NCBI GenBank assembly: GCA_964583485.1
Contig: CAZOVC010000004.1
Coordinates: forward strand, 1-44,941
Length of the DNA stretch: 44,941 nt
Direction: 5' to 3'
DNA from: an uncultured Candidatus Saccharibacteria bacterium
GTDB taxonomy: Bacteria; Patescibacteriota; Minisyncoccia; Minisyncoccales; GWA2-38-27
The translations under genes and the position numbers were made by a program. The notes under the pieces were generated by a model. It made no database searches. It saw only the letters and a list, made by a program, of their open reading frames with translations, and had not been told where the DNA came from. Each line of letters starts with the position of its first letter. Within the stretch, counting starts at the first letter, position 1. Positions 8,984-28,143 of the stretch are shown here, one piece after another.

Positions 8984-9109
8984 TGGCCACTATAAGAGAG
9001 CTACCTACTTTCGCCCAAAAGGACTATCATCGGCCTTGAGAGATTTCACTTCCGAGTTCGAAATGGGATCGGGTGGAGCACTCCCAGTATAACTCCCTTA
9101 TAGTAGCCA
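8984..9109 (-). rRNA. rrf: 5S rRNA (ends approximate)
   Basis: CCCGAUCCCAUUUCGAACUCGGAAGUGAAA core, GCGAAAGUAGGU; long terminal helix. Confidence 0.93.
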
Positions 9110-9253
9110 CAATAAATAAATTACTAGCATTAATTGTTAGCCAACCTAATATGATTTATTAGTACTGCTCAGCTAAACCCGTTACCGGGCTTACACTTAC
9201 AGCCTATTAACCTCGTCATCTTCGAGGAATCTAAGAATCCTAATCTTGTGGTG

Positions 9254-9286
<33 letters not shown>

Positions 9287-9403
9287 CTTCCCAACTTAGC
9301 TACTCAGCAGTGCTCTTGGCAGAACAGCTGATACACCAGAGGTTAGTTCAGTCCGGTCCTCTCGTACTAAGACCAACTCCACTCAAGATTCAACGCCTGC
9401 GGT

Positions 9404-9434
<31 letters not shown>

Positions 9435-9520
9435 GAACCCAGCTCGCGTAACGCTTTAATTGGCGAACAGCCAAACCCTTGGGAGCTGTTCCACCCCCAG
9501 GATGCGTTGAGCCGACATCG

Positions 9521-10330
9521 CTCTTCTCTATTATTACTAATAGTATGGACTATATCTTCACCCGCCACAACTTTTTAGACGTTGGCGGGGTTGGCGTATT
9601 ATAGTAGTTTGAACCTACTATCCCTTGATTTTCATCAAGAAGTCTCTACGGGGTCTCACTTAATTTATATCGCATTGTAGGAACTATATAAGGATTAATT
9701 ATTCTTCTAAATCTATCTGCACTTCCCGTTCTTATTCTAATTCTGTAATATATTTTATCTCGATTCAGTGAACTCTCAATTCCATACTCTTTTTTCAACG
9801 TTTCTATTAATCTTTTCTGAGACAAATAATCAAATCCTTGAGTGTTCAAGTAATAAGTTTTATAGGTTTTACTTCCATCATCCATAAACCATACTGCCAT
9901 TATCAATGAATTTAACTGAAATTCTGGCACAATCTTCTTTCCATTTTGATAAAACTTCTGATAAATTTCGGTCAAATCTGGATGTTGTCGAGTAGAAAAT
10001 CTATATGCTATTCTTGTTCCATTTCCTTTTCTTCGTCTCGGCGGAGTTATTACTATTCTTTTCAATGCTTGATATTTCCAATCTATATAGAATTTTTGTT
10101 TGATGCTACTATCAATCTCAAAAAGTGCGTTTTTTCTTCCGGGAACAATTCTTAAATATCCATCACCTAAAACTGATCCTACAATTATTGATTTTTCTTT
10201 TTTGGTGAGACTTCCCACGGTATTGTCCATTATTATATTTTAACATAAATTTTAATGGATTTCACCGTTATAAGCCACTTTTTTGTATGACATTACTGTC
10301 ATAAGACCCCGATTTGCCGGCAATACTTTG
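9521..10330 (-). mobile_element. group I intron (IA-type, extra P7.1/P7.2 hairpins) at about L2500
   Basis: splits GAGACCU|CGAUGUCGGC; IGS GGGUCUU pairs with exon GAGACCU with U-G at the splice site; R element CGUAGAGACU, S element GAAGAUAUAGUCC, terminal G. Confidence 0.93.
9646..10230 (-). CDS. intron-encoded double-motif LAGLIDADG homing endonuclease
   Basis: IVGSVLGDGYL and AVWFMDDGS motifs. Confidence 0.92.
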   Translation of the reverse strand: MDNTVGSLTKKEKSIIVGSVLGDGYLRIVPGRKNALFEIDSSIKQKFYIDWKYQALKRIVITPPRRRKGNGTRIAYRFSTRQHPDLTEIYQKFYQNGKKIVPEFQLNSLIMAVWFMDDGSKTYKTYYLNTQGFDYLSQKRLIETLKKEYGIESSLNRDKIYYRIRIRTGSADRFRRIINPYIVPTMRYKLSETP

Positions 10331-13002
10331 AGGTCTCGAACAGGGCCGTTGATATGGACTCGCGGGCCCTACTAAGCTGTTATCCCCGGGGTAGCTTTTA
10401 GCTGATAATCTTCGGATTTTCTATTAAAATCCGTCGGTTCACTAAGTTCTAGTTTCCTAACTGCGCAGCATATCCGCCTTGCAGTAAAGCCAGCTTTTGG
10501 CTTTATCCGACAACTCCGATTTCCATCCGGAGCTAGCTGACCTTTAAACGCCTCCATTACCTTTTAGGAGGCAAGTGCCCCACTTAAACTGTCTATTAAA
10601 CACTGTATCCCGTTGAGCGGGATTAGAATTAAGATTTTGAAAGAAAGGTGTTTCATTGTTGACTCCACCCCGCCCAAAAGCAAGGTTTCAAAGTCTACCT
10701 TCTACGCTACGCATCCAAAACCAAAATCCAATATCTAACTACAGTAAAGCTCCCGGGGTCTTTCCGTCTAGCCGCAGGTAACCGGCATCTTTACCGGTAC
10801 TGCATTTTCACCGAGCTGCTCCTGGAGACAGTTCCCCAGTCGTTAAGCCTTTCATGCGGGCCAGAACTTACCTGGCAAGAGACTACGCTACCTTTGGACG
10901 ATTATAGTTATCGCCGACGTTCACTGGCGCTTCGAGCAGTCAGCCCAATCCCGCAAAATGCGAAAAAGGACCGCCGCTGTTAACGTTCCAGCACTGGTCA
11001 GGCCTCAACCCCTATACATCCTCTTGCGAGTTTAGCAGGGATTTGTGTTTTTGATAAACAGTCGCCAGGGTACTTTAGCTGCGGCCCCCGCTAAGCGGGG
11101 GCAAGGCATATTCCGAAGTTACGCCTGCTTTTTTGCCGAGTTCCTTCAGGAGCTTTCACTCGTTCACCTTAGCACACTTATGCCAACCTACCTGTGTTGG
11201 TTTGCGGTACGGACCCAACATCTCTATTTCTCATAGGCTTTTCTGGATAACTTATTCAACAAGTTCGCTTTGCCCGAAAGCAAAGCTCAACTGTAAATCC
11301 AATAATACAGCTTGTCTCCTAAATTACGTCACCTTTCGAAAAGATGCTGAGGGGCCGGAATATTAACCGGCTGTCCATCTCTCGTCTACCTTTCGGTAGA
11401 CGGATTAGGCCCGCCTAACCCTTGGATGATTACCATTGCCAAGGAAACCTCAGGTTTTCGGTGTGCCGCTTTCTCAGCGGCATTGCGGTTACTCATGCCA
11501 ACATTCTCACTTTCTAACACTCCGCTCTGCCTTACAGCAAAGCTTCAAAGTATTAGAAACGCTCCCCTACCATCCCCGCTAAGCGGGGATTCTTATCTTC
11601 GGTATCAAGCTTTAGTCCCGTAAATTTTTGGCGCAAAATTCCTTAGCTAGTAAGCTGTTACGCACTTTTCAAAGGCTCGCTGCTTCTAAGCTAACCTCCT
11701 AGCTATCAGAGGAACTTCACCTCCTTTAAAACACTTAGCTTGATTTAGGGACCTTAGATTAAGATCTGGGCTGTTTCCCTTTTGACTATGGAGCTTAGCC
11801 CCCACAGTCTAACTGCCTTACTTAAATTTCCAGTATTCGAAGTTTGGTAGGAAAATCCGAGCAAAGCCCAAAATAATCCTTCCAGTGCTCTACCCCTGGA
11901 AACAATAATAAGACGCTAGCCCTAAAGCTATTTCGGGGAGAACCAGCTATTACCAAGCTCGATTAGCTTTTCACTCCTTACCACAGCTCATCCCAGAGTA
12001 TTGCACGGCTCACGGGTTCGGGCCTCCCCCCCCTTTTCAGCGGAGTTCACCCTGGCCATGGCAAGCTCGCTTGGCTTCGGGTCTCTTTCACCTTCTTAAT
12101 AAATGCGCTATTAACGCTCGCTTTCGCTTTGCTTCCATCCCGAAAGGACTTAAACAAAGAAGGTAAAAGAACTCGTTGGCTCATTCTTCAATAGGCACGC
12201 CATCAGTCGCCTAAGGCGACCTCTGACTCCTTGTAAGCAAAATGGTTTCAGGTACTATTTCACCGCCCTTACCGGGCTACTTTTCACCTTTCCCTCACGG
12301 TACTGGTTCACTATCGGAGATATCAAGTATTTAGCCTTGGCCAATTAGTCTGGCCTGCTTCCCACAGGGTTTTCGTGTCCCGTGGTACTCAAGTAAGATA
12401 GTAAGGAGCGCAAAGAAATTTTCAAATACGGGGCTATTACCCTCTATGGCTGCCCTTTCCAGGGTCATTTTTCTAATTAACCTTGTCTAAATGTTCTCCC
12501 TCAAAAGTATTCCAGTGTACCCGGAATACTCCCGACACTACCCTCTTACAACCCCCCGATGTTACATCGGGGTTTGGGCTTCTCCTTTTTCGCTCGCCGC
12601 TACTCAAGGAATAAAAATTTTTCTCTTTTCCTCCGCTTACTGAGATGTTTCACTTCAGCGGGTTTGCTCTCGCCTAAGGCGAGTAATTTCGCTTATCGCG
12701 AAATCGGGTTTCCCCATTCGGAAATCCCCGGATCAAAGGTTGCTAAACACCTCACCGAGGCTTATCGCAGTCACGCCACGTCCTTCATCGCCTTGATATC
12801 CCAAGGCATCCACCATCTGCTCTTAAATTAATGGTTGGCTAACAATTAATGCTAGTAATTTTATTCAGTTTTCAAAAAACTTTCCGATAAAACAAAAACC
12901 GCTTTGGAAGCGGATTTATCAAAGTATACTCAAAAATCCAGAATCTAACCGCTCCTTTTATTTTTATCCATAATTGTCCTTATGTTTCTCATATCTCTTT
13001 TA

Positions 13003-13030
13003 ATTGTAGCAAAGTAAAAACCCTTGTCAA
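13003..13030 (-). promoter_or_regulatory. dedicated 23S-5S promoter
   Basis: TTGACA, 16 bp, TACAAT, about 170 bp upstream of 23S. Confidence 0.75.
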
Positions 13031-13056
13031 GCCCCTGTACAGCCCTGTAAATGAAT

Positions 13057-13094
13057 AAAAGAAGCCAAGCCCCTATTCAGGAACCTAGCTTCTT
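13057..13094 (-). terminator. terminator insulating the 23S promoter from upstream genes
   Basis: 16-bp stem with G-U pairs, loop GAAU, U tract on minus strand. Confidence 0.7.
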
Positions 13095-13116
13095 GAATTT
13101 CCAAAAATAATTTTAT

Positions 13117-13800
13117 TTATCCCCTTAGCTTATTTCTTAAATCTTGAAGAACTTCTGATGCCACGTCCTTTCCTCCCAAACCAAGCGAAAGACCAACCGC
13201 CAAAACAATTATTGCTACAATTCCCCGGAATAAATCTGCCATAAAAACCTTTCCAATTCCAAGCTGGTATAAAATAGTCAAAATTGCGAAAATCCAGATT
13301 GACCATTTCACGATTACTCCAACAATTTGTCCATATCCCATTTTAGCGCCTTCTACCGCTGCTCTAACAATCTTCTCTAAAACATCGGCGATAATCACTG
13401 CTACTACAAAAATGAAAGCGGCAACAATCACATTAGGCAAGAAAGGCAAAACTTCCCCCGTCAGAAACATAGTTAATTCGCTAAATCCTAAAATCTCAAC
13501 CGCTGCTGCCAAGAAAACAATCAGCAAAACCCATTTAAAAATAGCTCCGATAAAAGAAGAAACATCTGCTTTTATTTCAGCTTTTTCCAAAGCGGTTTTC
13601 CATCCGCCTTTTTCAAAGATTCGGTCAAACTTTATTCTTTTCAAGACTTCAGCTACTAACTTTCCGATGGCGATGGAAACAAGCCAGCCAATCAGAAAAA
13701 CAATAATTGCTCCAACAAGATTAGGAGTAAAATCAATAAATCCTTGCCAAAGATTTTTCAAGGCAATAATAGTAGTATCAAACCAATCTGTTAATATCAT
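13117..13800 (-). CDS. multi-TM membrane protein, MscS-associated TM-helix (CmpX-like) family
   Basis: PNLVGAIIVFLIGW and FLPNVIVAAFI repeats; ends GLGGKD. Confidence 0.75.
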   Translation of the reverse strand: MILTDWFDTTIIALKNLWQGFIDFTPNLVGAIIVFLIGWLVSIAIGKLVAEVLKRIKFDRIFEKGGWKTALEKAEIKADVSSFIGAIFKWVLLIVFLAAAVEILGFSELTMFLTGEVLPFLPNVIVAAFIFVVAVIIADVLEKIVRAAVEGAKMGYGQIVGVIVKWSIWIFAILTILYQLGIGKVFMADLFRGIVAIIVLAVGLSLGLGGKDVASEVLQDLRNKLRG

Positions 13801-13923
13801 ATTATTTTATGTTTACCCATCACTACCAATTTCATTGGTGTGAGGATAAAATTGATACTTGTTATGCCGACCTTTCTTATTAAAATATTATACCATACCC
13901 AAACAACCTTACCCTGTGGAAAA

Positions 13924-14685
13924 CTATTCTTCTGGTAATTTCTTGCCAAATGCTTCAAAAGCTCTTAAAATTTCTAAAGGCACTGCAAAAACAATAGTAT
14001 TTGACTGGTCAGAACTTATATCATTAATTGACTGAAGAGTTCTCAAGTGCAGAGCTCCTTTTGATTCTGATAAGATTTGAGCAGCTTTAGCCATATTATC
14101 AGCGGCAATTACCTCTCCCTGAGCTTTAATAATTATTGCTCTTTTTTCTCTTTCTGCTTCTGCCTGCTTGCCAATAACCCTTTTCATTTCTTCTGGCAAG
14201 GTTATATCTTTCAACTCAACATTGATAACTTCAATTCCCCAGGGATCAGTAGCTTTATCTACAATAGTTCTTATGTTTTCCGAAACCCTGTCTCTCTGGG
14301 AAAGAAGCTCATCTAAGTCAACCTGGCCTACAGCATTTCGCATTGTTGTCTGAGCTAACTGAGAAATAGCATAATAAAAATTCTCTACCTCTAAAATTGC
14401 CTTATCAGCACTTCGGACTTTATAGTAAATAACAGCGTTAACGCTCACTGAAATATTATCCTTAGTTATTGCTTCCTGGCTTGGCACATCTACCGCTTTT
14501 ACTCTTAAATCTACTTTTCTATGGGATTGAATAATAGGAAAAACCAATCTCCATCCCGGATTCATCAAACCAATATACTTGCCGAGCATAAACTTTACTC
14601 CTTTTTGATACTGATTAATCTGTCTGATAGAAATCAAAATAATGAAGACAATTATTCCTAAAATTATTAACATTACATTTGTCAT
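13924..14685 (-). CDS. SPFH/band 7 (slipin/stomatin-like) protein
   Basis: ITKDNISVSVNAVIY, AQTTMRNAVG, TDPWGIEV, QAEAERE, LHLRTLQ. Confidence 0.93.
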   Translation of the reverse strand: MTNVMLIILGIIVFIILISIRQINQYQKGVKFMLGKYIGLMNPGWRLVFPIIQSHRKVDLRVKAVDVPSQEAITKDNISVSVNAVIYYKVRSADKAILEVENFYYAISQLAQTTMRNAVGQVDLDELLSQRDRVSENIRTIVDKATDPWGIEVINVELKDITLPEEMKRVIGKQAEAEREKRAIIIKAQGEVIAADNMAKAAQILSESKGALHLRTLQSINDISSDQSNTIVFAVPLEILRAFEAFGKKLPEE

Positions 14686-14749
14686 ATTTTTAAATTTTTA
14701 AAATAATTTAATTGATTATTAACCTTTCCGACCTTTTATTTGATTTTAT

Positions 14750-15010
14750 TTAAAATTGAATAACGTATAATCCTTTTTTCTTGATTTCCTTTTCCTGACT
14801 AAAATCATTGAGTTTGAATTTCAAAAGGTATTTTACATTCTTTCTAATCTTTCTGCCAGTATATTTTTTAGTTTTTGGATTCCATTCTTCTAAAACCAAA
14901 ATATCTCCTTGTTTAATTCTAAAATCAGCCAATCTTAATTCAAATTTCTTCTCGCCCGACTTCACAAGATTAAACCACTCTGGCCAAATTTTCTTTTTAA
15001 TCATTGCCAT
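14750..15010 (-). CDS. ASCH/DUF3850 domain protein
   Basis: KKIWPEWF..V.SGEKKFELR..D..GD.L.L.EW. Confidence 0.8.
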   Translation of the reverse strand: MAMIKKKIWPEWFNLVKSGEKKFELRLADFRIKQGDILVLEEWNPKTKKYTGRKIRKNVKYLLKFKLNDFSQEKEIKKKGLYVIQF

Positions 15011-15242
15011 AGATTTTATTTTTAATTTTATTTATTTCAACTGGGTCCTCTAATAGTTCCCCTTTATGTAATTTATATAGAAGAGGAATAACCCCACAAC
15101 TTTTACATTTTCCCCAAGCACATTTTCCCGAATTTTCTTTTGACAATTTCTGACAAAGTGCGACCTCTCTATCAAAAATCTCCTTATTGATAATATCTTT
15201 CTTCAATCCTGTTTTACAAGTTAATTTAGTTTTATTTTTCAT
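14997..15242 (-). CDS. small Cys-containing hypothetical protein
   Basis: C..CAWGKCKSCG; overlaps next gene in the operon. Confidence 0.65.
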   Translation of the reverse strand: MKNKTKLTCKTGLKKDIINKEIFDREVALCQKLSKENSGKCAWGKCKSCGVIPLLYKLHKGELLEDPVEINKIKNKIYGND

Positions 15243-15333
15243 AGTTTTATTTCAATCAATTTTTTGATTTTTTAAATAAACTCGGTTTATTAATTTTTAT
15301 TTAAAACTAGTTAAAACTAAACCGAGTCTAGTT

Positions 15334-15358
15334 TTGCGTTAAGCTAAGCTTAACGCAA
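15334..15358. repeat. intergenic inverted repeat with C-UUA-G cap
   Basis: ttgcgttaagct-a-agcttaacgcaa. Confidence 0.85.
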
Positions 15359-15359
15359 T

Positions 15360-15821
15360 CTATAAATCAGAGTTGACACTATTTTTTTTAGCAATAAACT
15401 TTTTTAAAATTTTCTCGCTCGGAGAAAAAATAGGATTTGGTAAATTATCTAAATTAAACCATCTCCATTCAGTAATCTCATCCGGCTCCATAATCTTTGG
15501 TTCTCCTTCAAAATCTCTACATAAAAATCCTATAGTAATAAAATGAGCATCTGAAACTTTATCACTTGTAACGCTTATAATTTCCAACTTATCCTTATTT
15601 GGATTAATTCCAGTTTCTTCAAAAACCTCTCTGCAAGCAGAATCCTCTAATTCCTCTTGAAAATGAAGCTTACCTCCAGGCATTGTCCAACTGCCTTCAC
15701 CATGAAGCTCGCTATCTGCTTTCGCAGCATCACTATGCCTTTTCCCAAGCAAAACTTTATTATCTCTTAAAATCATCACTCCAACCCCAACCCCTGGTTT
15801 TTTATTTATATTATCCTTCAT
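15360..15821 (-). CDS. Nudix hydrolase
   Basis: Nudix box GGKLHFQEELEDSACREVFEETG. Confidence 0.92.
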   Translation of the reverse strand: MKDNINKKPGVGVGVMILRDNKVLLGKRHSDAAKADSELHGEGSWTMPGGKLHFQEELEDSACREVFEETGINPNKDKLEIISVTSDKVSDAHFITIGFLCRDFEGEPKIMEPDEITEWRWFNLDNLPNPIFSPSEKILKKFIAKKNSVNSDL

Positions 15822-15830
15822 AAATTTTAA

Positions 15831-16508
15831 TTAGTTTTCTCCCCTTGTTTCTTTCTCTAACCTATCTAAAAAACTCTTAAAATATTCCGTCCTTTCTTGG
15901 GCAAGCTCTTTTGCTTCTTTGGTATAGAGTTTATCTTTTAGGAATCTTAATTTCGTCTCAAATTCTATTTGAGGACTATGACTAGTTTTATCTTGTACTC
16001 TGCCATTTATCTTTCCTCCGAGATTCTTTTTAATATATTGTTCAAGATTAGGATTTGAATAAATATTAGCATTATTCCTTCCAACCCAAACAAAAGCTCT
16101 GGCAACACCAATAGCACCTATTGTATCAAGTTTATCTGCGTCAAATAAAATCTTAGCCTCTATTGTTTGAGGCTCATTTCCTGTTCTATATCTATGAGAA
16201 ATAATACAATCTTGAACATGTTTTATTTTATCTTCAGAAAAACCGAAATCTCTTAATATTGGTCCTGCCATATTAGAACTTAAAACAGCGTGATCTGTTT
16301 TTCCTGTAGAATCATCATCTTCTTTAACTCTTGCTATATCATGGAGTAAAGCTGCTGCTTGCAGAATATCTAAATCAACTCTTTCCTTCTTAGCTAAATG
16401 CAGACATAGATTATATACTCTAAAAACATGGTCCATCTGATGGGCAGAACAAGAACCAGAAAGCTCTTTTTCAACAATTTCTTTAATTTTCTCAAACTTC
16501 TCTTCCAT
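15831..16508 (-). CDS. HD-domain metal-dependent phosphohydrolase
   Basis: H..DHVFRV, ALLHDI, HRY, DADKLD. Confidence 0.9.
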   Translation of the reverse strand: MEEKFEKIKEIVEKELSGSCSAHQMDHVFRVYNLCLHLAKKERVDLDILQAAALLHDIARVKEDDDSTGKTDHAVLSSNMAGPILRDFGFSEDKIKHVQDCIISHRYRTGNEPQTIEAKILFDADKLDTIGAIGVARAFVWVGRNNANIYSNPNLEQYIKKNLGGKINGRVQDKTSHSPQIEFETKLRFLKDKLYTKEAKELAQERTEYFKSFLDRLEKETRGEN

Positions 16509-16639
16509 AAATTTTATTCAATCAATTTTTTGATTTTTTATTTAAAAAGGTTCCTAACCCCTTTTTCCACATTGTCAATACCCTTATCTGTGGAAAAGTA
16601 AAAAATGGGCACTCTCCCGTTTTTTGCTAAAATTTTTAT

Positions 16640-17458
16640 CTATTTATAACGTTGCCAATTGACTTTTGTGCCTCGTTTATTTTCAACCTGTTGACCGTCA
16701 GGTTTTTTGGCGAGGATTAAATATTTAAATCCTCTTAAAAAGAAATTAAATTTTTGAGCCCGGTAGTGCCAGACTCCGGTATTAGAGCTTTGACCTCTTC
16801 TTGTTACGCAAATCATATCTATAGGTTCAAATCCAGTTTTTTCTATCAAGGTCTCATAAATTTTAAAACCTACGGGGGTGAACTTTCTTTTTACCCATTG
16901 ATCTCCAATTAACCAACCTATAACCTTTCCTGGTTTTAAAACTCTGTAAATTTCTTTCGCTACTTTCTCTAATTCTTCATAAAAATTTGGGGCTTCTGCA
17001 GAAATTTTTCCGATATCCATCAATTCATCTGAATATTTGACATTGTCTCCATAAGGAGAATCTATGAAAACCATATCTACAGAATTCTCTTCAAGAGGAA
17101 TCTTACGAGAATCATTTTTAATAACTTTTGGATGTTGAGGATTAATATCATAACCAATTGCTTTTCTATCTTCCTCTTCGCATACATCAATTGTAGTTCC
17201 ACTTCCGGCCATCGGATCAATCACTAAATCTCCCGGTTTTGTGTAACGCTGAACCATATTCCAAATAATGAAAGCAGGAGTTACACCTTGAAATTTATTG
17301 TTACCTTTTGGCTTTTTACCATAACTTTGTCTTGGATAATCCCAAAGCGTAGTCGTTTCGAAAGACGGCTTTTCGTCCTCTATTTTTTCCTCCTTTAAAT
17401 TCTCTTTCAAGGGTAATATTTCCTTATTATTTTTTTTATTCTTTATTTCTTTTGGCAT
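16640..17458 (-). CDS. amino (N4-C/N6-A) DNA methyltransferase of a type II R-M pair
   Basis: SAM motif DPMAGSGTT, catalytic-like FIDSPY; overlaps upstream nuclease. Confidence 0.85.
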   Translation of the reverse strand: MPKEIKNKKNNKEILPLKENLKEEKIEDEKPSFETTTLWDYPRQSYGKKPKGNNKFQGVTPAFIIWNMVQRYTKPGDLVIDPMAGSGTTIDVCEEEDRKAIGYDINPQHPKVIKNDSRKIPLEENSVDMVFIDSPYGDNVKYSDELMDIGKISAEAPNFYEELEKVAKEIYRVLKPGKVIGWLIGDQWVKRKFTPVGFKIYETLIEKTGFEPIDMICVTRRGQSSNTGVWHYRAQKFNFFLRGFKYLILAKKPDGQQVENKRGTKVNWQRYK

Positions 17459-18137
17459 AAATTAAATTTTTTAAATCAATTAGAAATTTATCAAATTTTT
17501 TAACTTTCTCGCTTTCTTTAATTTCTTCCTCGCTCATCACATAACTTCCATCTGTATCAATTTCCACTATTGCTCTCCCTTTTTTAGCCGGTTCTCTAAC
17601 ACTTAAAGTTTTATCTTCATCTGGCGTAATAAAGAAAACTTTAATATGTTTAGTTACTTCATCTTGGTTAAGTTTTATTTTCCAATAACCGGTTTGCGCA
17701 ATTCTTTCTCTTAAAGTAACCTTGCTTGAAATTACAGCAATTATCTTATAATCTTCGGGGTTATAGATAATTATATCCACATCAGGCAAATGAGCACCAA
17801 ATTCACCATAATCAACTAAAAGATTTCTTTTTACTCGACTTAACTCCTTTGAAAGATTTTTACTATTTATCCTTTCTAAGGTATTTCCTTCTATTATTTT
17901 TAATCCTAATTTCTCTACTTCATCTTTAATAATATAAAGAATCAATTTCTCCAAATTCTTTCCTTTGAATGCTCTCCAAGATTGTTCATGATCTCCATTT
18001 GGCGTAGGCGACTTCAGCCAATCCTTTTTATGTAATTCTTTGCCTTCTCTCAATAATTCTGAGATATACTTAAAAGCATCGTTCCCATATTCTTCTTTTT
18101 TCTTTTCGTAAAGTTTTACTAAATCTTCAAATCTCAT
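17436..18137 (-). CDS. type II restriction endonuclease, BsaWI/Cfr10I-like
   Basis: EQSWRAFKGKNLE, PDVD, ISSKVTLRERIAQ pattern. Confidence 0.8.
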   Translation of the reverse strand: MRFEDLVKLYEKKKEEYGNDAFKYISELLREGKELHKKDWLKSPTPNGDHEQSWRAFKGKNLEKLILYIIKDEVEKLGLKIIEGNTLERINSKNLSKELSRVKRNLLVDYGEFGAHLPDVDIIIYNPEDYKIIAVISSKVTLRERIAQTGYWKIKLNQDEVTKHIKVFFITPDEDKTLSVREPAKKGRAIVEIDTDGSYVMSEEEIKESEKVKKFDKFLIDLKNLIYAKRNKE

Positions 18138-18210
18138 ATTATTTATTATAGCTCATTTCTGATTCTTTTTCTATTTTATCTTTATTTCCAAAAAATTTCA
18201 AGGAAAACTA

Positions 18211-18235
18211 AAAAAAAAGCGAAACCTATCGCTTT
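18211..18235 (-). terminator. terminator after tRNA-Ile/greA/tRNA-Ala
   Basis: AAAGCGA/UCGCUUU stem plus U tract. Confidence 0.65.
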
Positions 18236-18344
18236 CGCCTCTCAATTTTTTGAATTAAATTTTTTGTATTCATATATAATAGTTTATCAAATTTGCAACT
18301 TTTTTTTCAAATAGACAGAATTGTCCCGATAATTTTTATGGTTG

Positions 18345-18416
18345 TGGACTCGGTGGGAATCGAACCCACGATCTTCGCATTGCAAATGCGACGTTCTGCC
18401 ACTAAACTACGAGCCC
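18345..18416 (-). tRNA. tRNA-Ala(UGC), CCA not encoded
   Basis: cloverleaf, anticodon loop UUUGCAA, G3-U70 pair. Confidence 0.95.
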
Positions 18417-18417
18417 G

Positions 18418-18870
18418 TTATTCAATTTTAAGAATTTTGCATTTAATCCTATTATCCCCTATCTTCTTTTCTATTTTATCTCCAACAGATTTATTCAAAA
18501 TAGCTTTACCTAAAGGCGACTCATAGGAGATTTTCCCATTTAACGAATCTACCTCGCCTGGCCCTACAATTTCAATGTTTTCTTCTTTTTCATCTAAAGA
18601 AATTAAAACTTTTGAACCAACTTGAACTTTTCCAGTTTGCCTATTTTCAACTATCTCTGCGCTATTAATTCTATTTTGAATTTCTAAAATCTTTCCTTGT
18701 AAAAATGCCTGTCTTTCTTTGGCATCTGTATAAGCTGCATTTTCTTTAAGATCGCCAAAAGAAGCAGTATGTTTAATAAGACCTGCTATTTCTTTTATCT
18801 TAACAGTTTTTAAGTAATTTAACTTCTTCTTAAGTTTTTCTAATCCTTCAGCAGTAATATATTCAGCCAT
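18418..18870 (-). CDS. greA: transcription elongation factor GreA
   Basis: ITAEGLEKL, GDLKENAAY, ISYESPLGKA; true start ATG 18870 (the longer ORF runs through tRNA-Ile). Confidence 0.93.
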   Translation of the reverse strand: MAEYITAEGLEKLKKKLNYLKTVKIKEIAGLIKHTASFGDLKENAAYTDAKERQAFLQGKILEIQNRINSAEIVENRQTGKVQVGSKVLISLDEKEENIEIVGPGEVDSLNGKISYESPLGKAILNKSVGDKIEKKIGDNRIKCKILKIE

Positions 18871-18872
18871 AG

Positions 18873-18944
18873 TGGGCGCGGAAGGAATCGAACCTTCAAC
18901 CTCTTCTTTATCAGAGAAGCGTTCTACCACTGAACTACGCGCCC
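18873..18944 (-). tRNA. tRNA-Ile(GAU), CCA not encoded
   Basis: cloverleaf, anticodon loop CUGAUAA. Confidence 0.95.
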
Positions 18945-18953
18945 GATATATGA

Positions 18954-18982
18954 ACTTTAGCAAAAAATAAAAAGCCTGTCAA
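18954..18982 (-). promoter_or_regulatory. promoter for tRNA-Ile-greA-tRNA-Ala
   Basis: TTGACA, 17 bp, TAAAGT. Confidence 0.65.
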
Positions 18983-19134
18983 AAGCTTCTTATTCGCATA
19001 CCTTCGGTTTCTTAGAGTTGTTTCGACTCGAGAGTAATCGACATTTAAGGTTATCGATCAATACCTTAGTATTAAAGAGAGAATTCTCACTCTTCAATTC
19101 CAATCGACGCTAACTCGCCTAAGACGAGTTTAAA

Positions 19135-20620
<1,486 letters not shown>

Positions 20621-20754
20621 AAAATAGAGTCGGAACAACTCTAAAAAACCGATTTTTTAAAGAACAAATCAGGAAGAGACTTCCTGACTATCAAAGCTCT
20701 TTATGCTTTTGTTTGTTTTCTTAATTCATATATTTTGTCTCTTCTCTGTTCTCT

Positions 20755-22486: not shown

Positions 22487-23056
22487 TTAGAAAACCCTGG
22501 AAAACCAAGTGAGGAGTCGGAGAAGAAATAAAGATAAAGGACGAGGAATAATAAATGGCTTAATGACTGCATTCTCTTCAAATGCTTTTTCTCTTGCTAA
22601 AAACATTACTACAACTATTGTTTTTCTATCCCCTATTCTGCCTTTAGCAATACCAATACCAACATCAATAAAATTCTCATTTAAAATATTTTTAGCGTGT
22701 GAAGGAGAATTAATCCAGGCATCTATTAAAACTTTTGGATCATTAACATCAATAGCTAAGTTTTCACCTGCTGCCGCATAATCATAATCTACTTTATCAA
22801 GCCAGACCCAGGGCGGTTCGCCATCTGGTCCTGTATGGTCAAAATAATTTCTGGCTATTATATCTTCTGCCTTTAGTTGGGCCGCCCGGGTGAGCTTCTC
22901 ATTTATTTTAAGTTTTTTTTCTCTAAGCGGATTTACTTCTTGAACAATAAGTTGTTGAGTTAAATTAGCAAGAAACTTATTTATTTTAAAATCAAGAAAA
23001 GAAAAAATAATTATTATAAAAACAAAGATGAATAAAATAGATAAAATTATTTTCAT
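22487..23056 (-). CDS. CAP/SCP domain protein
   Basis: LTRAAQLKAED, YFDH, AGENLA, WINSPSH..NIL. Confidence 0.9.
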   Translation of the reverse strand: MKIILSILFIFVFIIIIFSFLDFKINKFLANLTQQLIVQEVNPLREKKLKINEKLTRAAQLKAEDIIARNYFDHTGPDGEPPWVWLDKVDYDYAAAGENLAIDVNDPKVLIDAWINSPSHAKNILNENFIDVGIGIAKGRIGDRKTIVVVMFLAREKAFEENAVIKPFIIPRPLSLFLLRLLTWFSRVF

Positions 23057-24462
23057 AATAAAAGCTTGCCTACAACTACTAAACGTTTTTTATCTGAAAA
23101 AAGCGGTGAACAAGTAATCAAAGTAATAATTGATTCATCTGTCTGCTCTAAAACTTCTATTGCTTCAGGGCTCACAATATTAGAAGATATTACTATGTAT
23201 ATATATTCTTTGCTTTTCCAATAAATATAAATCAAATCGTCTTGCGCAATTTTATCTAAAAGATAAAACGTTTCTTTATGCGGGGGTTCATATTTAAATC
23301 TATGACCAGCCAAAACAGTATTACTCCCTAAATCAGGGGTAGAAGTATCAGGCATAAGCCAAGCTCCTTTTTCCAAGGCCGATTCATTATTACCCAAAAC
23401 AATCGGAATTTCTACTCCAATCCTAGGGATTATAAGCCAATCGCCTTCTATGTCTTTTATAGCGCCTTCTGTATTTTTTGTTTCTTCTGTCTCAGTTATT
23501 GGCATTGATAAATTATATTTAATAACAGGAATAAATGGATATATCAAAACAATTAAAGCGCCTGCAATTAAACCGCCGAACAATATTATTTGTATTATTT
23601 GCCTGTATTGTTTTACAAAGATACTAATCAATCCCAAAATACCAACAAGTAAAACAGCTAAACATCCAAGAACAAACCAAGCAAAAGAACTTATTCCTGT
23701 GTGAGGAAGCCGTTCTGGTTCTGGTTCAATAATAATTTCCTCTCCTTTTACTTCTGGTATCCGAACTTCAATTACAGCATCATCTGAAATTGCTTTATGA
23801 TTACTTGATGTGAGTTCAGCTATGTTTTTATATTCTCCTGCTTCAATATCTTCTGGAACTATAACTTCGTAATTTATTATTCTTAATGCTCCGGGAGAAA
23901 GATCTTCAAGATTCCATTCGTTTATTGTAAAACCAGTATCTTCAAGCATCACATTTCTTGCAGTTCCTGAACCTATATTTTTTACTACAATTGTATAATT
24001 TATTACAGCTCCTGGATTAGTAAAGTCCTGTTCAACTGTTTTTTCAATCTTTAATCGAGGAGGATTATATCCTCCTCCACCACCTCCATTTGATGCTAAA
24101 GGCGGACTTGGTTCGGGTTCGGGTTCAGGTTCGGGTTCAGGTTCGGGTTCAGGTTCGGGTTCAGGTTCGGGTTCAGGTTCGGGCTCTGGCTCGGGTTCTT
24201 GACTTTGTTCCTGACTCTGGCTCTGGCTCTGCTCTCCTTCTCCTTCCTGCTCCTGAGATTGTTCCTGACTTTGCTCATAAGAAGGACTCTGAGAAGAACT
24301 CTGGCTTTGTTCATAATATTGATACTGAGATTGAGATTGGCTTTGGGACTGATTTTGAGACTGACCTTGTTCAAGCGCTAAACAAATCTTTGGACACAAA
24401 AAACTTACGGCTATAACCGCGCTAATCATTAATAATATCCTTCTAAATGCTTTCTTTCTCAT
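23053..24462 (-). CDS. surface protein (signal peptide, QS-rich, EP repeat, DUF11-like, LPHTG) fused to a C-terminal sortase domain
   Basis: LPHTG plus two TM helices; sortase LAGH...TLITC...R; start at ATG 24462 or 24495. Confidence 0.85.
   Translation of the reverse strand: MRKKAFRRILLMISAVIAVSFLCPKICLALEQGQSQNQSQSQSQSQYQYYEQSQSSSQSPSYEQSQEQSQEQEGEGEQSQSQSQEQSQEPEPEPEPEPEPEPEPEPEPEPEPEPEPEPSPPLASNGGGGGGYNPPRLKIEKTVEQDFTNPGAVINYTIVVKNIGSGTARNVMLEDTGFTINEWNLEDLSPGALRIINYEVIVPEDIEAGEYKNIAELTSSNHKAISDDAVIEVRIPEVKGEEIIIEPEPERLPHTGISSFAWFVLGCLAVLLVGILGLISIFVKQYRQIIQIILFGGLIAGALIVLIYPFIPVIKYNLSMPITETEETKNTEGAIKDIEGDWLIIPRIGVEIPIVLGNNESALEKGAWLMPDTSTPDLGSNTVLAGHRFKYEPPHKETFYLLDKIAQDDLIYIYWKSKEYIYIVISSNIVSPEAIEVLEQTDESIITLITCSPLFSDKKRLVVVGKLLL
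24108..24195 (-). repeat. (Glu-Pro)n coding microsatellite
   Basis: ggttcaggttcg 12-bp units. Confidence 0.95.
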
Positions 24463-24626
24463 ATCTTTTTTATATCTTCTAAATAAAAAACCCAAAAATC
24501 AACTAATAAAATTAGCCTTAATATTGAGCTTTAAACGACCTTCCCCTTAAATAAAAAGAGCGATTATCAAAAAAAAGAACTATTATCAAAAAAGAACTAA
24601 AAAAAGAACAACAAGGGGATATTCTT

Positions 24627-24655
24627 ATCTTAAAAAAATAATAAACTTCTGTCAA
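24627..24655 (-). promoter_or_regulatory. promoter for sortase-fusion/CAP operon
   Basis: TTGACA, 17 bp, TAAGAT. Confidence 0.7.
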
Positions 24656-24674: not shown

Positions 24675-24705
24675 AAAAGGGGCGGTCATTTTGACCGTCC
24701 CTTTT
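24675..24705. terminator. intrinsic terminator
   Basis: aaaaggggcggtca / tgaccgtcccttt inverted repeat after ORF 24716. Confidence 0.75.
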
Positions 24706-24715
24706 GCTGTTAAAA

Positions 24716-25645
24716 TTATCGGGGCTTTTCCATGGTTTCCTTTAGGTCTTTTACCGCTGCTGTAAGCTTTTCTATTTGCTCGCTGAGTTTATCGGTTTTG
24801 TCCGACTGGACAATCTGCCGAATAGGAACTTGCCGAGGAAGCACTTGCCGAGAAAGCGGCTCAGACATAGTTCTTAGCGGGGACGGTGGCGGCAATGAGG
24901 TTTTACTCCTCACAAGAGGGGTTAAAATAATCCCCGGCTCGCCTATTTTTTTGATTGAGGCCCTGCCAAAACCAATACCTGCGGCAAAGGCACTGTCTTT
25001 TCCAGCAGATACAGCGCTAAAAGGAAAACCGAATGTTTTGCCGGAAGTAACGGTATTTAAACCATCGTTTCCGTCGTTAAGTAAAACCATATTGGCTCCA
25101 TTATTCATAGCAAGCATCAAGCCGTAAGCAAAAACAATTAATTGAGTAAATCTCCCATTCCCGCTTACATTGATGGCAAGCATTATTGAGTGTCCTCCCG
25201 ATATCTCGCTTAATTGCCTATTAACCTTGACATCAATAGAATCTGTTCTGGGAAGATGAGAGGGAATAACCATTTTTTTAAATCCCCAGCCGAATTCAGC
25301 GCCTAAGACGCCGGTATGTTTTAGTATATTCTCAACTTCTTTTCTGGTCCAGGTTCTTTCCAAATATTCTTTGGGAATACCGTATTTGTTCCAAAAGAAA
25401 ACTTCTTCTTTTGTTGGAGGAATTAAAAGATGCTCTGGCATTTGCGACTGGACCGCCTGAACTTTTCTGTCAAAATTAACTTGGACTCCAGCCGTTGCGC
25501 TTCCCCCTTCTCCGCCATATGCTTCTTGTTGTTGTTTTTGTTTCGTTTTTTGCTCTTGCTCCATATTTATATCCTGGCCAAGAGAAATGCCGCAGACAGA
25601 AACCAACATCACAACCATCACAATCAAAATAATTCTTTTCTTCAT
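24716..25645 (-). CDS. hypothetical secreted protein
   Basis: signal peptide MKKRIILIVMVVMLVSVCGISLG; start set at ATG 25645. Confidence 0.75.
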   Translation of the reverse strand: MKKRIILIVMVVMLVSVCGISLGQDINMEQEQKTKQKQQQEAYGGEGGSATAGVQVNFDRKVQAVQSQMPEHLLIPPTKEEVFFWNKYGIPKEYLERTWTRKEVENILKHTGVLGAEFGWGFKKMVIPSHLPRTDSIDVKVNRQLSEISGGHSIMLAINVSGNGRFTQLIVFAYGLMLAMNNGANMVLLNDGNDGLNTVTSGKTFGFPFSAVSAGKDSAFAAGIGFGRASIKKIGEPGIILTPLVRSKTSLPPPSPLRTMSEPLSRQVLPRQVPIRQIVQSDKTDKLSEQIEKLTAAVKDLKETMEKPR

Positions 25646-25710
25646 TTCAGTACCTTTCCAAAAAAATTTTAAAAGACCTCTTCCAAAGACACTCTTTGGA
25701 CTAATAGACA

Positions 25711-25738
25711 ATTATAAACAAAGTAAAAAATATGTCAA
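25711..25738 (-). promoter_or_regulatory. sigma70 promoter
   Basis: TTGACA, 16 bp, TATAAT. Confidence 0.8.
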
Positions 25739-26736: not shown

Positions 26737-28143
26737 TTATTTTATCTTGGCAATGTCGGATTCGTAGGATTTGGTAATTGCCATTACTGGATAACCGTAA
26801 TCTCTTCGATAAACATCAGCATATCTTGATTTATACCAGCTAGGTCCTGCAAAATAGCTTAAAGCGGCATTAAACTCTCCATTATAAGTTTGTTTGGCTG
26901 CTTGATAATCTGCTAAATACAAAGCAGCTGCTAAAAAAGCGTCTTTAATATCCCAGGGATCGCCCGGTTCTCCAGTAATTGCCTTAAGCCGGTCTCTATA
27001 TATCATCCAAGTGCTTGGAATAAATTGAGCAGGACCCATTGCTCCTCCATAACCGTAACTCATTGGACAAGATACTGGAGTAGCGTAAGGATCTCTTCCT
27101 AATTCTCCAGTAATCTCTAAAAATGGACCTACGTCTCTGGTAGGCTTCATTACGCGTGAAAGTTTTCTGCCAGTGCTAATAACCTCTCCTGCGCCTGTTG
27201 CCGGGTTTTTTAAATAGCACTGGCCAACATTCTTTCCAATATTTGATTCTTGAGTCAAAACAGCTAATAAAAACGCCGGTCTAACTCCAGTAATACTCTC
27301 TACTTGCTTTGCTATCTCATAGGCCTGGCCAAAAGTAGGAGCTTCAGACACACCTATTAATTTAAAAATTCTGGCTCTAATCTCTGCCGCTTTTTCATCA
27401 ACCTCTCTTTTCTCTTCAAGATATTTTTGATATTCTTTTTCAGTTAGTTTTAAATAATATTCTTGCTCTTGTTTTGTCTCAGCGTTTTCTCTATTTTGAA
27501 TAGTTTGAATTTCTACCATATGTTCCAAATCTCCCTTCTCTTCATCTAAAGATATTCCCTGCTCTTCTAAGTTTGTTTTCAAGAGCTTAATATCCTGTAA
27601 AAGTTCTTTGCTTTTTGAGTTTAAAAGCTCTAAAGCAACTATATTATCAAAGAAATCAGAAATTTCCGGCTCTGAAAATAATATTTCTATTATTGGCTTT
27701 TGGTCTTCTTCATAAATAGTTCTTAAAATATTGACTAGTTTATCTTTTGAATCTTCTATTTTCAAAGAAGTTTTTTGAATAGAAAAATTAGTGTCTTCAA
27801 TTTGAATCCCTAAATCTTTAACAATCAAATTGCTTTGGTTAATCTGATAATTTAAGTTTGTTATTTTCCTTTTTAAAGAATAAATTTTGTTCTCAAGGGT
27901 CTTTTTTTCTTCTCCAGTTTTATCAAGGTCTTTTTCAATTTCTTCGCTCTGCTCTCTGTAATATCTTTCGCACTTTTCTAAAAGCAAACGACATTCGGTC
28001 GGACTGAGTTTATCGCATTGCTCTTCTATTTTTTCTATTTGACAAACCTGTTCAAAATCTTCAGCAAGAACAAAACTTGGCACAAATAAAACCAAAAATA
28101 AGATAAAGAGTGAAACTAATTTGTTATTTTGATTTTTTTTCAT
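26737..28143 (-). CDS. secreted coiled-coil protein with lytic transglycosylase (MltB/SLT-like) domain
   Basis: signal peptide, long coiled coil, TQES, GAMGPAQFIPSTW. Confidence 0.85.
   Translation of the reverse strand: MKKNQNNKLVSLFILFLVLFVPSFVLAEDFEQVCQIEKIEEQCDKLSPTECRLLLEKCERYYREQSEEIEKDLDKTGEEKKTLENKIYSLKRKITNLNYQINQSNLIVKDLGIQIEDTNFSIQKTSLKIEDSKDKLVNILRTIYEEDQKPIIEILFSEPEISDFFDNIVALELLNSKSKELLQDIKLLKTNLEEQGISLDEEKGDLEHMVEIQTIQNRENAETKQEQEYYLKLTEKEYQKYLEEKREVDEKAAEIRARIFKLIGVSEAPTFGQAYEIAKQVESITGVRPAFLLAVLTQESNIGKNVGQCYLKNPATGAGEVISTGRKLSRVMKPTRDVGPFLEITGELGRDPYATPVSCPMSYGYGGAMGPAQFIPSTWMIYRDRLKAITGEPGDPWDIKDAFLAAALYLADYQAAKQTYNGEFNAALSYFAGPSWYKSRYADVYRRDYGYPVMAITKSYESDIAKIK

Follow-up and report, generated by a model that had tools for sequence, protein, structure and literature searches.

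In a 44,941-nucleotide (nt) stretch of a contig of an uncultured Candidatus Saccharibacteria bacterium (CAZOVC010000004.1; Patescibacteriota), referred to here as the window, a sortase and an LPXTG substrate are encoded by a single minus-strand open reading frame (ORF; 23053-24462) that translates into one 469-amino-acid (aa) chain. Textbook sortases and their LPXTG substrates are encoded by separate enzyme and substrate genes. Comparison with related sequences indicates that this gene is a genuine fusion, kept in evolution, between the gene of a dedicated sortase and that of the substrate next to it, and we consider it almost certain that the fusion is real and functional. The reading that we favour on balance is that the fused protein works as a self-contained cassette for surface anchoring.

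Hydropathy, motif searches and profile hidden Markov models (HMMs) resolved the chain, in order, into a signal-peptide-like N-terminus, a Q/S-rich region, 15 Glu-Pro units ((EP)15), a Gly6 linker, a CLIPPER/DUF11 domain, an LPHTG motif, a transmembrane (TM) segment, a KQYRQ loop, a second TM segment and a sortase domain. An initial annotation, made from the sequence alone, had proposed a domain order from signal peptide to a sortase with its His, Cys and Arg, and every element that it listed was present in the translation, the hydropathy plot and the HMM matches. HMM match, catalytic triad and fold all place the C-terminal part in the sortase superfamily: PF04203 matched aa 344-467 (E=1.8e-25; 89.6 bits against a cut-off of 26.6), TIGR01076 scored 74.7 bits against a cut-off of 39.35, and His387, Cys451 and Arg460 were invariant both in a 38-sequence alignment and in all 22 fused members described below. 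In an AlphaFold2 (AF2) model of aa 125-469, built from the 38-sequence alignment (mean predicted local distance difference test score (pLDDT), 86), the sortase barrel had pLDDT values mostly between 80 and 96, and Foldseek matched it to class C (SrtC) and class A (SrtA) structures with a probability of 1.0 and a root mean square deviation of 2-3 Å over ~133 aa.

In the substrate half, PF01345 (DUF11, now CLIPPER in Pfam) matched with E=5e-9 (score, 36.9 bits; cut-off, 24.6), and AF2 folded this domain into an all-beta, seven-stranded immunoglobulin (Ig)-like sandwich with a pLDDT of ~97; a sequence comparison of the domain with the PDB gave no match. Some CLIPPER domains, but not all, contain an intramolecular Lys-Asn isopeptide bond formed with a catalytic Asp (PMC12617251), and K141, D175 and N213, which the alignment showed to be conserved across the fused relatives, are candidate isopeptide residues. 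All parts of a sorting signal are present, namely the LPHTG motif, a hydrophobic stretch (aa 259-283) and the charged KQYRQ; the signal departs from the defining form in not being C-terminal, as 181 aa more follow, running through the second TM segment and the sortase. The 45-kb window contained no further C-terminal signal of the LPXTG type, and the only ones in 188 kb of related loci belonged to substrates located directly upstream of split sortases; a second sortase was likewise not found in the window. These negative results fit a one-enzyme, one-substrate system.

Fused and split relatives

When aa 125-469 of the window protein were used to search 5.8 billion proteins, six full-span proteins containing both Pfam domains (43-59% identity) were returned, together with one partial protein (P0011), from JGI, ENA, Logan and NCBI sources. 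All six full-span relatives displayed LP[HEKN]TG, a TM segment, a basic loop, a second TM segment and the sortase. Scanning one genome per GTDB species yielded eight more loci with an uninterrupted ORF (L006-L011, L017 and L018, the last being the same contig as L001 (P0005)), and a search of 1.84 billion representatives with a profile of the whole module added eight further fused proteins; the latter search was swamped by giant multi-CLIPPER proteins and yields no count of the size of the group. In total, 22 fused sequences, including that of the window, were obtained from independent JGI, ENA, Logan and NCBI assemblies, and several 90% clusters combined members from different samples. The recurrence of the LPXTG-TM-TM-sortase architecture that the initial annotation had proposed to search for was therefore seen in independent assemblies, and the same order of parts in 21 other proteins of unrelated samples is far beyond chance. 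LPxT[G/A] and the His/Cys/Arg triad were kept in 22/22 members, and the motif was separated from the first sortase strand by 26 to 109 aa, in frame throughout; the linker between the second TM segment and the catalytic domain also differed in length among relatives and was in frame every time. The related loci belong to metagenome-assembled genomes labelled Patescibacteria, Candidatus Nealsonbacteria, Portnoybacteria and Spechtbacterales. In public databases the fused relatives are named 'sortase' or 'LPXTG-site transpeptidase (sortase) family protein' and nothing more; because these names cover the sortase only, the substrate half has been overlooked. A set of longer sortases from the first protein search (P0040-P0049), also checked for an upstream LPXTG motif, comprised class E-like enzymes or enzymes with long N-terminal extensions; none contained a substrate half, and they were set aside.

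Among the fused proteins, the C-terminal module is constant (in those with TM segments CLIPPER, LPXTG, TM, basic loop, TM, sortase), and the N-terminal passenger is variable: SdrD_B, SpaA-like and extra CLIPPER domains, Cys-rich repeats and EP repeats were found, with total lengths of up to ~1100 aa. The passenger of the window protein is a minimal form, consisting of low-complexity Q/S-rich sequence and an EP stalk alone. Besides the 15 consecutive EP units, which are encoded by a tandem array of 6/12-nt units (24110-24198; 14.8 copies), two extra units lie just N-terminal of LPHTG; a Gly-rich linker N-terminal of the CLIPPER domain is also present in relatives. The EP copy number varies among relatives, and L006 has fewer EP units than its close relative L007. 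In the L008 assembly, a run of N lies within the EP repeat. The stalk length looks, from these sequences, hypervariable and difficult to assemble. Two long ORFs over the Q/S and EP region of the window, at 24090-24416 (+) and 24096-24374 (-), are by-products of repeat composition and not genes.

A neighbour-joining tree built on sortase domains placed all fused members but one (21 of 22) in a single group, with a bootstrap support of just 7/60, and a single origin of the fusion is accordingly not established; P0004 may represent an independent fusion.

Five fused relatives have lost both TM segments (L010, 3186-6173; L017, 689-3793; P0011, P0166 and P0179). In these proteins, LPHTG, LPHTA, LPNTA or LPYTA is located 26-42 aa ahead of the first sortase strand, at the end of secreted multi-domain proteins of ~750-1000 aa, and the triad is intact. 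LPxTG was found in 17/17 TM-containing members and LPxT[G/A] in 5/5 of the TM-less ones. Given that P0113, which has two TM segments, shares its long N-terminal architecture with the TM-less L010 and P0166, the hairpin was probably lost after fusion. That motif and triad persisted when the hairpin was lost suggests selection for keeping motif and enzyme coupled, and not just for their co-localization at the membrane; the TM-less variants may be soluble self-processing modules.

In sister lineages, two abutting genes take the place of the fusion: a CLIPPER protein with a canonical LPXTG-TM-basic tail, followed by a sortase of the same group. In these split relatives the sorting signal is positioned at the extreme C-terminus of the substrate. 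The CLIPPER protein of L003 ends in ELPDTG, a TM segment and a tail closing with NRNKKSFGNFAY before its stop codon, overlaps the sortase start by 11 nt and is followed, after the sortase, by a gene for a CAP-domain protein. In L004, a 1043-aa CLIPPER protein ends in LAATG, a TM segment and LRRKYLS before a TAA stop; the sortase ATG follows at once, in frame and with no gap. Six further loci (L012, L013, L015, L019, L020 and L021) have a split arrangement similar to those of L003 and L004; the ORF upstream of the sortase in L016 was dropped as a candidate substrate because it has no sorting signal. The abutting genes of the split relatives identify the N-terminal half of the window protein as the cognate substrate that adjoins its sortase. 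They also argue that the fusion arose from an adjacent gene pair, a change that requires hardly more than losing one stop codon. The initial annotation had stated that two separate genes in relatives would refute the fusion; such genes were found in the sister lineages only, where they show how the fusion originated and do not refute it. Together with the relatives that encode both halves in one ORF, they bear out the reading of the window protein as a sortase fused to its own LPXTG substrate.

The L004 arrangement is also an argument for regarding the window ORF as a sequencing or assembly error, or as the result of a recent inactivating mutation that removed the stop between two genes, given that one base change in the TAA of L004 would join both genes in frame. 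However, the 22 fused sequences come from independent assemblies, the junction has undergone many in-frame changes in length, and conservation extends to both halves. On this comparative evidence we reject an assembly error or a fresh pseudogene, which we find barely credible.

The junction itself can be traced in the free-standing sortase P0009, whose N-terminus (MLTKQYKKTLII...YPFLPAIKYY) matches VKQYRQIIQII...YPFIPVIKYN of the window protein by eye; P0009 begins MLTKQYKKTL, and the loop of the window protein reads KQYRQ. This match indicates that the loop corresponds to the N-terminal tail of the sortase itself, doubling as the charged tail of the sorting signal. Because the sortases of the split relatives start at exactly this position, and a TTG codon (Leu294) is located at the start of the second TM segment, an internal start near the loop might also produce free sortase, which would alter translation and leave the function the same. 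In the window gene, however, the loop has neither an ATG nor a GTG and lacks an evident ribosome-binding site, production of the full-length fusion would continue regardless, and such a start is unworkable for the TM-less variants. We therefore regard the production of two proteins as quite improbable.

Enzyme class and proposed mode of action

The closest PDB match by phmmer was SrtC 3g66 (E=3.6e-14), within a set of sequence matches to SrtC and SrtA. The window protein scored 86.1 bits with the class C HMM NF033745, under its cut-off of 160, and 62-66 bits with the class D/E HMMs NF033746, NF058671 and NF033747, under cut-offs of 140-165. Features of class C enzymes are a lid at the N-terminus that covers the active site and a membrane anchor at the C-terminus (PMC8225981). 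Neither a lid nor a C-terminal TM segment was seen in the window protein: only 6 residues follow the Arg strand, and the segment preceding strand 1 is disordered in the AF2 model. By the NCBIfam cut-offs the enzyme is not class C, D or E, and its sequence assigns it to an unclassified group of Patescibacteria sortases. Sortases have been reported in more than half of the genomes of the candidate phyla radiation (CPR) (PMC6744442).

These comparisons bear on whether the protein polymerizes. If it worked like a class C pilus sortase, a lysine or the N-terminal amine of a second copy of the protein would resolve the acyl-enzyme, and the outcome would be a covalent fibre in which every subunit comes with one single-use enzyme. 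Its nearest matches in sequence and structure are pilus sortases of class C; CLIPPER domains, which are stalk domains of the isopeptide type, are characteristic of pilins and fibrillar adhesins (PMC12617251); and the TM-less variants, which would be unable to adjoin membrane-bound lipid II, retain motif and triad. Polymerization is nevertheless improbable in our view, given the class C score well below its cut-off, the missing lid and C-terminal TM segment, the lack of an identified pilin-motif lysine, and the presence of a single substrate-type gene per locus, with tip and base pilins absent from the examined loci.

The mechanism that we propose for a surface-anchoring cassette would proceed as follows. 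The Sec system would export the N-terminal part, and the two TM segments, the first running from outside to inside and the second from inside to outside, would insert as a hairpin, with KQYRQ cytoplasmic by the positive-inside rule. LPHTG would then be found ~2 residues from the membrane on its outer side, next to where the 27-aa linker to the catalytic domain emerges. Cys451 would attack the T255-G256 bond of its own chain or of a neighbouring chain, and the passenger-CLIPPER part would pass through a thioester acyl-enzyme to an amine acceptor, which by analogy with other sortases is most likely a peptidoglycan precursor. A 214-aa two-TM sortase beginning at Gly256 would remain in the membrane. 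Fusion would supply enzyme and substrate in equimolar amounts, side by side. Proximity favours cleavage in cis; cleavage in trans between neighbouring chains is equally compatible with the data. We judge it likely that the fused sortase processes its motif; that the acceptor is the cell wall, which follows from the analogy, we put at about even. The initial annotation had placed the motif and the catalytic domain outside the membrane, in keeping with this topology, and that part of its reading, like the fusion, stands. Its labels of 'adhesin' and 'host attachment' find no support in the window copy, which consists of low-complexity sequence and one Ig-like stalk domain, with no recognizable binding domain.

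Several points weigh against the anchoring cassette. The TIGR01167 score of the sorting signal, 13.4, falls short of the cut-off of 15.9. The structure prediction proposed earlier as a check confirmed the sortase and Ig-like folds but left the motif undocked: in the models of the window protein and of the TM-less P0011 the domains were confidently predicted and the LPXT[G/A] segment was disordered (pLDDT below 50), as was the linker in P0011. More sortases or substrates may be encoded elsewhere in the genome, the survey having covered the window and the related loci. The wall acceptor is assumed by analogy with other sortases. Finally, one enzyme per substrate molecule is costly, and the protein could have a single-turnover or regulatory role instead. 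In the AF2 model of the window protein the LPHTG segment and the linker after the second TM segment had pLDDT values below 50, and the two TM segments were drawn as one long helix, which we read as an artefact of membrane-free modelling. The models confirm the folds and say nothing for or against docking in cis.

The score below the TIGR01167 cut-off and the undocked motif would also suit a protein that does not process itself at all, in which LPHTG and the first TM segment are a relic of the fusion and a two-TM sortase permanently displays the stalk, acts on substrates elsewhere or has no catalytic purpose; the drift of the motif to LPxTA in three TM-less relatives points the same way. Yet L, P, T and G have been kept in all 17 TM-containing members despite flanking linkers that cannot be aligned, the triad is invariant, and other candidate substrates were not found in any examined locus. 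A protein without self-processing is therefore unlikely.

A more novel reading, which we advance only tentatively, is an autocatalytic device that anchors or ligates itself in cis, possibly in a single turnover. The TM-less proteins (L010, L017, P0011, P0166 and P0179) would then be secreted, membrane-independent units that join their passengers covalently to another protein or to a foreign surface. If this were true, the module would be a natural 'sortase tag with a built-in enzyme', possibly one with which episymbiotic Patescibacteria build or attach surface structures.

Gene layout and neighbourhood

The features of the fused gene and its CAP neighbour are listed in Table 1. The gene starts with an ATG at 24462 and stops with a TGA at 23053-23055; its frame is open back to a TTG at 24495. 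The promoter-like site and the terminator-like hairpin of the upstream gene both lie within the 220-nt spacer that precedes the fused gene, and we infer from the consensus match that the gene may have its own promoter.

Table 1. Features of the fused sortase-substrate gene and of the adjoining CAP gene (window positions; all on the minus strand).
Feature	Position	Strand	Basis or remark
Promoter-like site TTGACA-17 nt-TAAGAT, upstream of the fused gene	24627..24655	-	Consensus matches only
Signal-peptide-like N-terminus, aa 1-29, MRKKAFRR-ILLMISAVIAVSFL-CPKICLA	24376..24462	-	Hydropathy peak at aa 4-31; putative cleavage site
Q/S/E-rich low-complexity region, aa 30-88	24199..24375	-	Translation
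(EP)15 repeat, aa 89-118	24109..24198	-	Translation; encoded by 6/12-nt tandem DNA array
Gly6 linker, aa 126-131	24070..24087	-	Translation
CLIPPER (DUF11) Ig-like domain, aa 135-245	23728..24060	-	Pfam PF01345; all-beta in AF2
LPHTG sorting motif, aa 252-256; predicted scissile bond T255/G256	23695..23709	-	Motif search
First TM segment (TM1), aa 259-283, hydrophobic segment of sorting signal (outside to inside)	23614..23688	-	Hydropathy, alignment; topology predicted by the positive-inside rule
Putative cytoplasmic basic loop KQYRQ, aa 284-288	23599..23613	-	Basic residues here in all TM-containing fused members
Second TM segment (TM2), aa 289-312, predicted sortase signal-anchor (inside to outside), ending in conserved YPFxPxIKY	23527..23598	-	Hydropathy, alignment
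Acidic flexible linker from TM2 to catalytic domain, aa 313-339	23446..23526	-	Low pLDDT (AF2)
Sortase catalytic domain, aa 340-469	23056..23445	-	Pfam/NCBIfam, PDB sequence matches, AF2 and Foldseek
Catalytic triad His387; Cys451; Arg460	23302-23304; 23110-23112; 23083-23085	-	Motifs AGH; TLITC; KKRL
Membrane CAP/YkwD-domain protein, 189 aa	22487..23056	-	PF00188, E=7e-13; start overlaps the stop of the fused gene by 4 nt (ATGA)

The translational coupling to a downstream CAP gene that had been noted from the sequence also holds in relatives: a 4-nt overlap joins the CAP start to the sortase stop in the window, L001 and L002. A membrane protein with an extracytoplasmic CAP/YkwD (SCP-like) domain is encoded after the sortase in nearly all loci, and in 14 distinct related ones, with either a fused or a split sortase, its gene comes immediately downstream (for example, L001, 9299-10195; L002, 9599-10522; L003, 1338-2381). 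The window CAP protein does not have the ~100-aa linker seen in relatives. The gene order of secreted hypothetical protein, fusion, CAP, rpsB and tsf is common to the window, L001 and L002. No link between sortases and CAP proteins was found in the literature searched. The translationally coupled CAP membrane protein is probably a third component of the cassette.

The gene upstream of the fusion (24716-25711, minus strand) encodes a secreted protein of ~310-330 aa without a Pfam family, 28% and 17% identical to its positional counterparts in L001 and L002, respectively, and is followed by a clear terminator-like hairpin at 24683-24697. Farther upstream, 26737-28143 (minus strand) encodes a 468-aa secreted protein whose N-terminal half is a long coiled coil and whose C-terminal part is an SLT_2 lytic transglycosylase domain, and the same gene occupies the syntenic position in L002; this lytic transglycosylase-like gene is evidence for a peptidoglycan wall in the organism.

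The window also contains an interrupted rRNA operon (8992-20621, minus strand), in which ~5.5 kb of protein genes lie between the 16S gene (19137-20621), tRNA-Ile and tRNA-Ala on one side and the 23S (9137-12840) and 5S (8992-9100) genes on the other. This stretch encodes a BsaWI-type restriction enzyme (17436-18137), a DNA methylase (16640-17458), proteins of the HD, NUDIX and SPFH types, and one that has a mechanosensitive-channel TM helix. The 23S gene measures 3704 nt against a 2925-nt model and encloses an ORF for a LAGLIDADG_2 homing endonuclease (9646-10230, minus strand; E=8e-41), indicating that it probably contains an intron; a LAGLIDADG ORF is found at the syntenic place in L001. 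An intron-bearing 23S gene and an interrupted rRNA operon are CPR hallmarks of the window.

Comparison with known systems

In the literature on sortases, on CPR, Patescibacteria and Parcubacteria, on CAP proteins and on DUF11/CLIPPER domains, we found no description of a natural sortase-substrate fusion; engineered fusions only were described, and otherwise there were general statements that sortases are common in CPR bacteria. A natural fusion kept over long divergence implies that the sortase reaction can be organized inside one polypeptide, and it raises the questions of whether the enzyme is used once, whether it acts in cis and what serves as the acceptor in Patescibacteria, whose envelope is poorly understood. 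It also defines a conserved anchoring cassette of CLIPPER domain, LPXTG motif and sortase, with a CAP partner, that carries highly variable passengers and so flags the proteins exposed on the surface of these bacteria, which are uncultivated and probably symbiotic. The natural TM-less variants could serve protein engineering as compact, soluble, self-processing sortase modules.

One of the nearest known arrangements is that of the split Patescibacteria pairs, which share with the window the sortase group, the CLIPPER-LPXTG substrate, the downstream CAP gene and the gene order, and in which the enzyme directly follows the only nearby substrate. The substrate of the split pairs stops after its charged tail, whereas in the window there is no stop and the substrate TM segment is joined to the N-terminal tail of the sortase to give a one-chain TM hairpin. 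Other sortase systems dedicated to a single target include class B sortases and the 'marine' class GN sortase. With the class C enzymes (SrtC of S. pneumoniae, 3g66; SrtC1 of group B Streptococcus, 4g1j and 3tbe), the window protein shares the eight-stranded barrel, the His-Cys-Arg triad and TLxTC, and these are its best matches in sequence and structure. Unlike them, it scores under the class C cut-off, has no recognizable lid or C-terminal TM segment, belongs to no pilin cluster and has its substrate in cis.

Enzyme and motif are also combined on one chain in engineered SrtA-LPXTG fusions, which cleave themselves (PMC4658790, PMC2901362). Those tags are artificial and soluble, are ordered enzyme-motif-cargo and release their cargo in vitro, whereas the window protein is natural, predicted to be membrane-embedded and ordered cargo-motif-TM-TM-enzyme. 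The CLIPPER/DUF11 stalks of fibrillar adhesins (PMC12617251; PDB 9IFR) belong to the same Pfam family as the substrate half and have in common with it the Ig-like sandwich, predicted here by AF2; its conserved K/D/N residues are at positions that would be compatible with an isopeptide triad. Their CLIPPER domains form long tandem arrays, whereas the window protein has a single copy adjoining the anchor.

A more distant parallel is found in autoprocessing proteins. In Hedgehog, a thioester intermediate passes the N-terminal part to an acceptor, and in Hint-type autoprocessing proteins and autotransporters a C-terminal module processes or anchors an N-terminal passenger. The logic of a conserved C-terminal module with a variable passenger is similar in the fused sortases; the folds and the chemistry are unrelated, homology is absent, and the likeness is one of analogy.

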